From IMG/VR virus record IMGVR_UViG_3300037067_008087, positions 1 through 64,000 of that record: a stretch of 64,000 nucleotides of DNA; one strand, given 5' to 3'. The notes below the pieces were generated by a model that had not been told where the DNA came from, did not search any database, and saw only the letters and a program-made list of their open reading frames with translations. Below, piece after piece: positions 3,189 to 5,454 of this stretch. Both the position numbers and the translations under genes were made by a program. The stretch's first letter is position 1, and each line of letters opens with the position of its first letter. Source of the stretch: a virus (lineage: Duplodnaviria > Caudoviricetes).

Positions 3189-3725
3189 TTATTGAGCCAA
3201 TAAGTATTTCATAACCTCAATCTGTTTCAGATAAGGCTGTAAGTGTTCGGTATCTGCATGGACTTCCCTTACCCTCGCTTCAAAGGCATTAAGACTACCT
3301 TTAAAACACCCGCATACTATCTGTGCATCGTTCGCATTTGTCCAATAACAAGCTGTTTGCGCTTGCCGTGAGCCAACTTTGGGAGTTATATACCGTTGCG
3401 GATTTTCTTCATACCCGGAGCAACGGGAGCAATCGGAGCAATTGGAGCAACCGGAGCAACGGGAGCAACGGGAGCAATCGGAGCAACCGGAGCAACCGGA
3501 GCAACCGGAGCAACGGGAGCAATCGGAGCAACCGGAGCAACCGGAGCAACCGGAGCAATCGGAGCAACCGGAGCAACCGGAGCAACCGGAGCAATCGGAG
3601 CAATCGGAGCAATCTATTAATGATTCACTTTTTTTAGCTGCCGACTCTTCTGTTTCATAATCAGCATCCCATCGGTTGTTATTCTCGTCGTAATACCAGC
3701 CGTCTTTTAAGGTTATTTTATTCAT
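3189..3725 (-). CDS. Cys-Ser-x repeat protein (probable beta-solenoid) with a conserved phage C-terminal GSR...CGCF domain
   Basis: 178 aa; (CSx)n tract followed by VGSRQAQT...[17 protein letters not shown], a tail seen after repeat tracts in phage proteins. Confidence 0.7.
3417..3614. repeat. Tandem 9-bp repeat GGAGCAANN, 22 units
   Basis: Directly visible; encodes CSx on the minus strand. Confidence 0.97.
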
Positions 3726-3810: not shown

Positions 3811-4713
3811 TTATTGGTTGTTATATTGTTCTATTGCCTTGAATATTTGATAAGCTACTTGCGGAACAATTGCGTTCCCCATAGCTTTTATAGATTCGTT
3901 TCTCCATTTAGGAAAGGTAATACCAACCAGTCTGTCGGAAAGCCCATCATTTCTGCCACGAAGAGGGGATTGAGTTGGGAAGTTGTCCCATCTCCCAGGT
4001 CTGCTGCCAAGTGACTTTTCCCTTTCTGTGAAGGACTGTTCTCTATCCCGTTGGTATCCAGTGTCGTGGGTGTCGGTAATAAACCATTTAAAGCCATTTG
4101 TTCCAGATTTAGGCCAAAATTTATTCCCGTTGTTTTGCTGATATTTTTTCCATCCGTCAACTTCCGATGTCCGTATTCGCATTGTGTTGTGGGCAACAAT
4201 CCAAACCCTGTCCCTTCGGTGCGGTGCGTTGACGGCACAAGCTGGAAGTACATACGGTTGCACTTCGTACCCTTCAGCTTCCAGGTCAGCCTGCACTTGG
4301 TCGAATACCAATCCCCCTGACCAATTAACAAAGCCGAAAACGTTTTCGCCCACAATCCATTGCGGTTGAATCTCCCGTATTGCTCTAAGCATTTCCGGCC
4401 AGAGGTGGCGGTTATCTTCTGTGCCTTTTCGTTTCCCTGCAAGTGAATACGGTTGACACGATCACGGGAACCCACCGGTGACGATAATGTCGTCATTTCT
4501 CCAGTGGGTTCCAAATCGTTTTGTAAGTTCAATATTAATTGTGTCATAAGTAAGTGTATGTATGTCTCCATGATGATAAGAGTTAGGCCAATAGTGGGCC
4601 AACACTTTTTGCCCAAATGGGTTTATCTCACAAGTGACACGTGTTTCCCATCCTATCCACTCAGCCGCTAATGAAAACCCTCCAATTCCTTCAAATAATC
4701 CTATGTGTATCAC
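3811..4713 (-). pseudogene. C5 cytosine DNA methyltransferase large subunit, interrupted by an in-frame TGA in motif IV
   Basis: Motif I LFEGIGG, motif IV GGFP*SCQPYS, motif VI GENV, motif VIII HRRDRVWIVA, motif X GNAIVPQVA. ORFs 4462-4713 and 3811-4392 share one frame. Confidence 0.85.
3888..4496 (-). CDS. Alternative-frame methyltransferase small subunit (motif IX), nested in the MTase gene
   Basis: Long second-frame ORF with LLPTPT and LNPLFVAEMMGFPTDW (motif IX-like); motif IX is absent from the main frame; likely start at MTTL (4496). Confidence 0.7.
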   Translation of the reverse strand: MTTLSSPVGSRDRVNRIHLQGNEKAQKITATSGRKCLEQYGRFNRNGLWAKTFSALLIGQGDWYSTKCRLTWKLKGTKCNRMYFQLVPSTHRTEGTGFGLLPTTQCEYGHRKLTDGKNISKTTGINFGLNLEQMALNGLLPTPTTLDTNGIENSPSQKGKSHLAADLGDGTTSQLNPLFVAEMMGFPTDWLVLPFLNGETNL

Positions 4714-5128
4714 GTTTCCTTCCTTTGGTATATTGATTATTGTGTGGACTATATTTTTTTGTATGTTCTGATTTAGGTAAACATTCTAAATTCTCAATTC
4801 TATTATTTGCCCTATTCTCATCTATGTGGTGAATATCATGACCCTTTGGAATTTTATGTTTTTCTTTCTCCCAAACATACCTATGCATCAATGTTCGTTC
4901 ATTGGTAGTCAATGAATAATACCCTGTATTCCTAAGTGTAAATTTTTTGCCATCATAAAACTGGTGTGGTTTAAAATTTACTCCCCTAAGCGTAAATCCT
5001 CTTTCTTTAAAGGCTTTATAAACACATTGTCTTGTCACGCCGATTTCTGTCGCTACCTGCTCAAGCGATAACCCATCAAGGTACATCTGGTATGCACTAT
5101 CATAAACAGGATTTCTTTTATTTGCCAT
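4691..5128 (-). CDS. HNH endonuclease with N-terminal HTH
   Basis: MHRYVWE...DIHHIDENRANNRIENLECL...H motif; overlaps the MTase start. Confidence 0.85.
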   Translation of the reverse strand: MANKRNPVYDSAYQMYLDGLSLEQVATEIGVTRQCVYKAFKERGFTLRGVNFKPHQFYDGKKFTLRNTGYYSLTTNERTLMHRYVWEKEKHKIPKGHDIHHIDENRANNRIENLECLPKSEHTKKYSPHNNQYTKGRKRDTHRII

Positions 5129-5211
5129 AGTTCAAATATACAATGTAATGTTGACGTATGCAAATCTTTTGTTTAAAAAAGAACCAATTCCCGAAAATAA
5201 ACTCCCGTGTT

Positions 5212-5454
5212 TCATGCACTCCTCAATCCTTTATTCCAGGGTATAGTACCCTTTTTAAACTTATTATCTATTAGTGTTTTACTCATACAGCTTGCCCTAT
5301 ATGACTTGTCTTTCTTTATCCCAAGTGCAAACGCCCTTGCATAGATAGCATATACACTTACCCCGTATCTCTCTGCTAATACTTTATTCGGAGTGTTGGA
5401 GTAATCCCGTGTTAGGGATTTGTGTTCAAAGTTTGTCCAAGAATGATAATTCAT
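5212..5454 (-). CDS. Small HTH-like protein resembling the N-terminus of HNH-associated proteins
   Basis: PNKVLAERYGVSVYAIYARA and FKKGTIPWNKG. Confidence 0.5.
   Translation of the reverse strand: MNYHSWTNFEHKSLTRDYSNTPNKVLAERYGVSVYAIYARAFALGIKKDKSYRASCMSKTLIDNKFKKGTIPWNKGLRSA

Follow-up and report, generated by a model that had tools for sequence, protein, structure and literature searches.

Can a gene that has an in-frame stop codon in the middle of its catalytic motif still direct the synthesis of an enzyme, and by what route would ribosomes pass the stop? This question is raised by a C5-methyltransferase gene, here called alpha, in the window, by which we mean the whole 64,000-nt stretch of viral DNA that was analysed and which is part of an 82-kb IMG/VR viral contig (GC content 38%). 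The gene occupies positions 3811..4713 on the minus strand, has a GTG start and consists of 300 codons; from GTG 4713 to TAA 3811 its frame contains a sole internal stop, the TGA at 4464-4462. Motifs I, VI, VIII and X (LFEGIGGF, GENV, PHRRDRVW and GNAIVPQV, respectively) are all carried in this single frame together with motif IV, and the translation read through the stop matches PF00145 over residues 4-185 with 127.9 bits, against a cutoff of 22.

Within motif IV, the minus strand at 4470-4453 reads TTC CCG TGA TCG TGT CAA (F-P-stop-S-C-Q). In this string TTC occupies 4470-4468, the catalytic proline codon CCG (hereafter the take-off codon) 4467-4465, the TGA 4464-4462, TCG (the landing codon) 4461-4459, the catalytic cysteine codon TGT 4458-4456 and CAA 4455-4453; TGA and TCG are the first and second codons of a 6-nt insert. 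Proline and cysteine are neighbours in motif IV of C5-methyltransferases, and they were adjacent in 89/89 distinct stop-less genes tallied here. As the DNA is written, the contiguous Pro-Cys is absent from the window's gene, and it is restored only if six nucleotides are skipped. The first-pass annotation, which was made from the sequence alone, had described a 6-nt insertion that places TGA between the catalytic Pro and Cys while keeping two overlapping frames open, and both the sequence and its translations confirm this. It had also remarked on a CGTG-AT-CGTG duplication and a GATC site; both are present in the window, and among the related genes described below they are restricted to TGA+TCN alleles, which make up 6/85 including the window's own.

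The relatives of the gene were collected in several ways. A protein-guided search of viral contigs returned 64 related loci, 14 of which (9 distinct genes) contain a stop plus one codon. A scan for the DNA pattern of any six nucleotides between CCN and TGY returned 96 places; wherever the context is a true methylase the insert begins with TAA, TGA or TAG, and the 16 matches with a sense codon are chance occurrences in unrelated short ORFs outside methylases. The genome_contigs collection, in which each of 185,579 species is represented by one genome, added 12 further true stop-bearing cases and, across those 185,579 species, no methylase with TGG at the stop position. These cases include the isolate Muriventricola aceti H5_61 as well as MAGs of Oscillospiraceae, Muribaculaceae, Flavobacterium, Peribacteria and Paceibacterota. 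The stop-bearing family as a whole belongs to phages and prophages recovered with genomes of the Bacteroidota, the Clostridia and the candidate phyla radiation. The cultured relatives Bacteroides phage BS-TP4 and Porphyromonas phage018a are stop-less.

With all searches pooled, a stop plus one codon lies exactly between Pro and Cys in 85 distinct related genes. Comparison with homologues, which the first-pass annotation had proposed as a check, thus found the insert, a stop followed by a YYN codon, to be conserved in at least 85 distinct genes and not a private lesion of this virus; because stop and YYN stand in the same place in so many distinct genes, the insert is far beyond chance. The stop is TAA in 34 of them, TGA in 26 and TAG in 25, and the take-off codon is CCG in 48, CCT in 22, CCA in 13 and CCC in 2. 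The landing codons are CTA (20), CCA (14), CTG (13), CCG (13), CCC (7), TCA (6), CCT (5), TCG (4), CTT (1), TTA (1) and GCG (1), which amounts to YYN in 84/85 and to a full CCN in 39/85; that of the window is UCG. Landing on GCG is seen in two exceptions, L179 after TAG and P0063 after TGA, the latter deduced from the product of its nested second frame.

On a tree built from 65 stop-bearing cores, the identity of the stop changed at least 16 times and never to a sense codon. In the landing codon, the first position underwent at least 11 changes and the second at least 14, every one of them C<->T, and the third position changed at least 17 times with all four bases involved. The base that precedes the R of the stop serves in the overlapping +1 frame as the free third position of an Arg, Leu or Pro codon, yet it is invariably T, and on this ground the stop itself is under selection. 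The YYN rule could in part stem from the overlapping frame, which has N, D or S at that codon.

Beyond the stop the methylase frame continues. Motif X is found in frame 170-416 codons past the stop in all stop-bearing genes that are uncut by a contig end, save four: L094 and L176 have an alpha frame that closes early, with motif X in the +1 frame instead, L080 has a broken +1 frame, and the alpha frame of L159 is without motif X. Across eight stop-bearing genes of 59-81% DNA identity, the excess of alpha-synonymous substitutions is x2.38 just after the stop, equal in effect to the x2.47 before it. Further downstream, the variable region evolves near-neutrally in the alpha frame (x0.94-0.95), yet it contains 0 stops where 2-12 are expected in 38/38 genes, 8 stop-bearing ones included; the window's gene has none, where about 4 would be expected (P about 0). 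Because this region is near-neutral and nevertheless free of stops, ribosomes must cross it in the alpha frame. To judge by these counts, the downstream methylase frame is open and under purifying selection.

The overlapping frame holds a second ORF of 219 aa, here called beta, at 3888..4547 on the minus strand. Its conserved ATG is at 4547, about 28 codons ahead of motif IV, and other possible starts are ATG 4571 and TTG 4616. Its span covers alpha motifs IV-VIII and includes the variable region with its LLPTPT repeats, and the sequence at its end, LNPLFVAEMMGFPTDW, is motif-IX-like; the C-terminus, LNPxFVxEMMGFPxDW, adjoins alpha motif X and resembles motif IX. The +1 frame is open over 190-370 codons in 62 of the 64 search loci and in the window, that is, in all those where motif IV was found, and the third frame at the same loci has 18-39 stops. 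Resampling of synonymous codons over the IV-VIII overlap gave an expectation of about 4.6 stops, with a probability of none of at most about 0.02 per gene, and counts of synonymous and non-synonymous substitutions reveal a second constraint. These patterns indicate that the nested +1 ORF is real. Because the insert is a multiple of three and brings no stop into the +1 frame, beta merely gains two residues, given at first reading as Asp-Arg; its sequence here is S-R-D-R-V-N, against S-H-A-N in stop-less relatives. The insert is therefore compatible with both genes.

Homologues of beta number more than 1000 database proteins; among the 120 listed, none has a Pfam family on record and the name given by the sources is 'hypothetical protein'. 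Beta itself had no match in Pfam even at E up to 10 and no sequence match in the PDB with a 34-sequence profile, and the AlphaFold single-chain models were too poor to interpret (pLDDT 47.8 for beta and 42.7 for alpha).

Several relatives show other arrangements of the two frames. In the database ORFs P0123 and P0128 the N-terminal part of alpha is fused in frame to beta just before motif IV, P0130 has an HNH-AP2 endonuclease domain in frame within beta, and P0133 combines alpha motifs I-VIII, an AP2-like endonuclease remnant and a beta-type variable region in one frame. In the Peribacteria MAG locus L176:3476-4714, where motif IV has TAG CTG, alpha ends 7 codons past motif VIII; a +1 ORF of 413 aa, without a Pfam match, there carries the variable region, the motif-IX-like segment and then motif X, all in one frame. 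Bacteroides phage BS-TP4 (L289; PQ571277.1, 50115-51437) has a stop-less alpha annotated as a 440-aa methyltransferase and, in the +1 frame, a complete nested beta ORF that is unannotated.

The origin of the insert is indicated by its upstream neighbour. An HNH endonuclease gene of 145 aa lies at 4691..5128 on the minus strand, overlapping the methylase start by 23 nt; the protein combines an N-terminal helix-turn-helix with an HNH_3 nuclease (Pfam HNH_3, E=1.7e-16) and shows distant similarity to phage proteins annotated as HNH homing endonucleases, with no close relative among cultured phages. HNH genes were found next to the insert in 74/102 stop-bearing loci, versus 0/51 stop-less loci, and went undetected with two queries in the remaining 28/102. 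The upstream distance from the insert to the end of such a homologue, or of an in-frame HNH domain that has a similar helix-turn-helix, is 40-255 nt, and in most stop-bearing relatives it is 200-255 nt. In a second, Clostridia-type clade, HNH was present in 4/4 stop-bearing loci; of 73 stop-less sites of this clade with enough upstream DNA, 72 were without HNH and one gave a weak match. Since stop-less genes form few clades, the association rests on about two independent contrasts.

The DNA upstream of the insert also has its own history. Stop-bearing and stop-less genes are 46% identical upstream of motif IV and 78% identical over motifs IV-VIII, whereas genes of the same group are as similar upstream of motif IV as they are over motifs IV-VIII. 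When the window was compared with stop-less DNA, 54 blastn HSPs started at 4458, the first base of the Cys codon, which is the first codon in common with stop-less methylase genes; others bridge the gap from 4485, and similarity never lies upstream of 4486. Similarity to stop-bearing DNA, by comparison, extends from about 5170 to 4189. Because stop-less similarity begins at the Cys codon, whose first base is next to the landing codon, the HNH gene, a replacement methylase 5' part and the insert form one unit, with the insert at its 3' edge. From these boundaries we place a putative mobile cassette at 4459..5170 on the minus strand, comprising the HNH gene, the replacement 5' part with motifs I-IV and the 6-nt insert, with the landing codon as its 3' end. 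The first-pass annotation had the sequence facts of the insert right and overlooked that it forms the edge of an HNH homing-endonuclease cassette. What is conserved at this edge is, on the comparative evidence, a recoding site.

Some further features of the region may be recorded. In six loci from Clostridia-type and other relatives (L193, L070, L080, L105, L133 and L159) an HTH-HNH endonuclease is inserted in frame between motifs III and IV, and the conserved stop therefore also ends the nuclease-containing ORF. Directly upstream of the window's HNH gene, an 80-aa ORF (5212-5454, minus strand) with a helix-turn-helix-like segment ends in KKGTIPWNKG and may be a homing endonuclease fragment or partner; just 3' of this ORF, at about 5132-5175, lies the start of the DNA similarity among most stop-bearing loci. 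Immediately 3' of the methylase, a 178-aa ORF without a Pfam family (3189-3725, minus strand) contains a repeat at 3417-3614 of about 22 tandem 9-nt units that encode C-S-(G/D/R/N).

How, then, would the stop be passed? We lean towards the reading that the insert gives immunity against a homing endonuclease and is rendered harmless when peptidyl-tRNA-Pro hops 6 nt, from CCG to UCG. By analogy with T4 MobA/gene 60, the insert, which lies in motif IV, where the DNA of the target gene is most conserved, would break the cassette endonuclease's own target site. A ribosome at CCG with the stop in the A site would terminate slowly because Pro is in the P site. The peptidyl-tRNA-Pro would unpair from CCG and re-pair six nucleotides downstream on UCG, which in the window would involve a G.U pair at the first codon position; a YYN landing codon would fit, since the two anticodon G's pair with C or U. 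UGU (Cys) would be read next, giving the canonical GGFPCQ within the hop product peptide GGFPCQPYSLAGK. Ribosomes that terminate would yield only an 83-aa N-fragment, and the hop would therefore also set a low enzyme level. A stop-hop from CCG to TCG that yields FPCQ had been among the options listed at first reading, and it is the one to which the comparison of relatives gives the best support, with YYN at the landing codon in 84/85 and never a sense codon at the stop; as a mechanism, the hop thus appears to be the best supported.

The take-off codon CCC is avoided (2/76 stop-bearing genes versus 32/89 stop-less ones) and CCG is used in 42/76 versus 4/89. The second glycine codon is GGC or GGG in 73/76 stop-bearing genes and GGA in 69/89 stop-less ones, and phenylalanine is encoded by TTC in 76/76 versus 71/89. 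Synonymous choices at positions -7, -4 and -1 from the stop are accordingly sharply unlike those of stop-less genes. This bias could be due to hop signals, to protection of the endonuclease target or to residue changes in the beta frame. RNAalifold over 85 contexts gave no conserved hairpin (consensus energy -0.3), and there was no covariation in these contexts, including between positions -7 and +11. The sequence GGAGG or GGGGG occurs in only about 40% of the genes, and a role of GGNGGN as an internal Shine-Dalgarno sequence is speculation. Take-off and landing codons match poorly in many genes; CCG>CUA, for instance, was found in 11 of the first 49 distinct genes tallied.

Readthrough of the stop by a near-cognate tRNA, which would produce an FP-X-S-CQ enzyme with two extra residues at low level, is the alternative that survives best and is nevertheless unlikely. 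A stop after Pro and before C or U is a poor termination context, and the frame is preserved. However, TAA, TAG and TGA are about equally frequent and interchange with one another, so that the inserted residue would vary, and the second residue would be L, P or S without any pattern at the protein level. A single base change would suffice to turn the stop into a sense codon, yet no methylase in the collections carries a sense two-codon insert, and the adjacency of Pro and Cys in all the stop-less genes likewise speaks against two extra residues. Neither the window nor the remainder of the 82-kb contig contains a tRNA gene, suppressor tRNAs included. UGA readthrough, another of the options first listed, is made unlikely by relatives that use TAA and TAG as often as TGA.

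A +1 frameshift at CCN-stop, in place of the hop or besides it, would join the N-terminal part of alpha to beta, and we regard this as quite improbable. The arrangement GGNGGN-3 nt-CCN-stop-C resembles the shift site of prfB (RF2), where a G-rich stretch likewise lies 3 nt before a shift-prone P-site codon that is followed by a stop and then C; in addition, the +1 frame is open across the site, and P0123 and P0128 are in-frame fusions of the N-terminal part of alpha with beta. The resemblance has limits, since a +6 move is needed here and not +1, and GGAGG or GGGGG is present in only the minority of genes given above. A +1 shift would also leave unexplained why the alpha frame past the stop remains in frame, constrained and open and why the landing codon has its second Y; a +1 slip would be favoured by CCC, which is avoided, and beta retains a conserved ATG of its own.

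True termination at the stop seems very unlikely; the N-fragment, with motifs I-IV as far as Pro, would then reassemble with a C-fragment that is initiated on its own. Homing-endonuclease insertions can split genes into pieces that reassemble (PMC2988022), and in the Clostridia-type relatives the stop ends an ORF with an HNH domain. However, there is no in-frame start codon from the stop to Cys, the landing codons being CTA, CCN and TCN, and the next in-frame ATG, 23 codons later, lies past Cys and CQPxSxAGK, a segment that is still under selection in the alpha frame.

It is most improbable that the gene is simply a pseudogene or carries a footprint, or that the 6 nt act as a reversible DNA switch; both ideas had been put forward at first reading. 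An inactivating footprint is rejected since the stop is conserved, with changes from stop to stop and without decay, in sequences whose DNA identity is no more than 59-81%, and selection acts on the frame downstream. For a switch, the window's CGTG repeat does flank the insert, and loss of one unit would give FPCQ, but most relatives have no usable direct repeat (for example CCG TAA CTA TGC); a scan of metagenome contigs for the window's allele found no insert-less twin and, equally, no insert-bearing one.

Two further candidates were discarded. Selenocysteine, which the first-pass annotation had thought unlikely, or a reassigned stop is excluded: the relatives use all three stops, each gene has a single in-frame stop, and TGA is an ordinary stop in this phage, ending 36/89 open stretches of at least 100 codons in the six frames of the window. 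Two programmed frameshifts, from alpha to beta and back to alpha, were rejected because slippery sites were not found and the open stretch of each frame far exceeds the requirement of such a model.

We return to the hop as the preferred reading. The chances are about even that these genes represent the first natural in-frame 'stop-hop' family, in which a cassette delivers a 6-nt insert to motif IV and peptidyl-tRNA-Pro re-pairs on any YYN codon in a minimal, hairpin-free bypass that would have to accommodate the second, nested gene as well. If this is true, hardly any signal (a Pro codon, any stop and YYN) is needed to programme ribosomes to pass over a stop, genes annotated as broken may work, and selfish nucleases can write hop signals into catalytic motifs, all of which would bear on the annotation of phage methylases and the prediction of phage DNA modification. 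Tractable systems are at hand in the isolate Muriventricola aceti H5_61, which is stop-bearing, and the cultured Bacteroides phage BS-TP4, with its stop-less alpha and beta.

Apart from T4 gene 60 with its relatives and yeast mitochondria, hardly any natural case of translational bypassing is known. As regards gene layout, the closest parallel is M.EcoHK31I; there the coding sequence for beta, which carries motif IX, lies within that for alpha, which carries motifs I-VIII and X, in a different reading frame (PMC2836561). The same nested alpha/beta layout is found in the window and in all its relatives, the comparison being one of layout; here, however, the start of beta precedes motif IV and the variable region belongs to beta as well, the corresponding region of alpha is an unconstrained but open linker, and M.EcoHK31I is without a stop in motif IV.

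The proposed move itself resembles the synthetic 'stop-hops' of E. coli (Weiss et al. 1987, as described in PMC5009743), in which peptidyl-tRNA moves over a stop to a similar codon and 9 nt yield one residue, although those were artificial constructs with matched codons. A 2016 review of recoding stated that no natural in-frame stop-hop was known (PMC5009743), and no later report of one was found in the literature searched.

The nearest natural counterpart is T4 MobA/gene 60, where the insert protects against self-cleavage (bioRxiv 10.1101/2022.08.31.505936; PMC2988022). As in T4, an HNH endonuclease gene lies beside the interrupted gene, the cassette brings a diverged copy of an upstream gene segment, and the insert sits in a conserved region with its stop after the take-off codon and its end at the landing codon. 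The differences are that the gap is 6 nt here compared with 50 nt in T4 and 20 nt in the shortest reported relative, that it is in frame, that no conserved take-off stem-loop was found (alifold -0.3), that the landing codon (YYN) matches the take-off codon (CCN) only approximately, and that the interrupted gene is a methylase with a second gene nested within it. With the bypass and the protection that we infer for this locus, the insert would be a miniature of the T4 mobA/gene 60 system.
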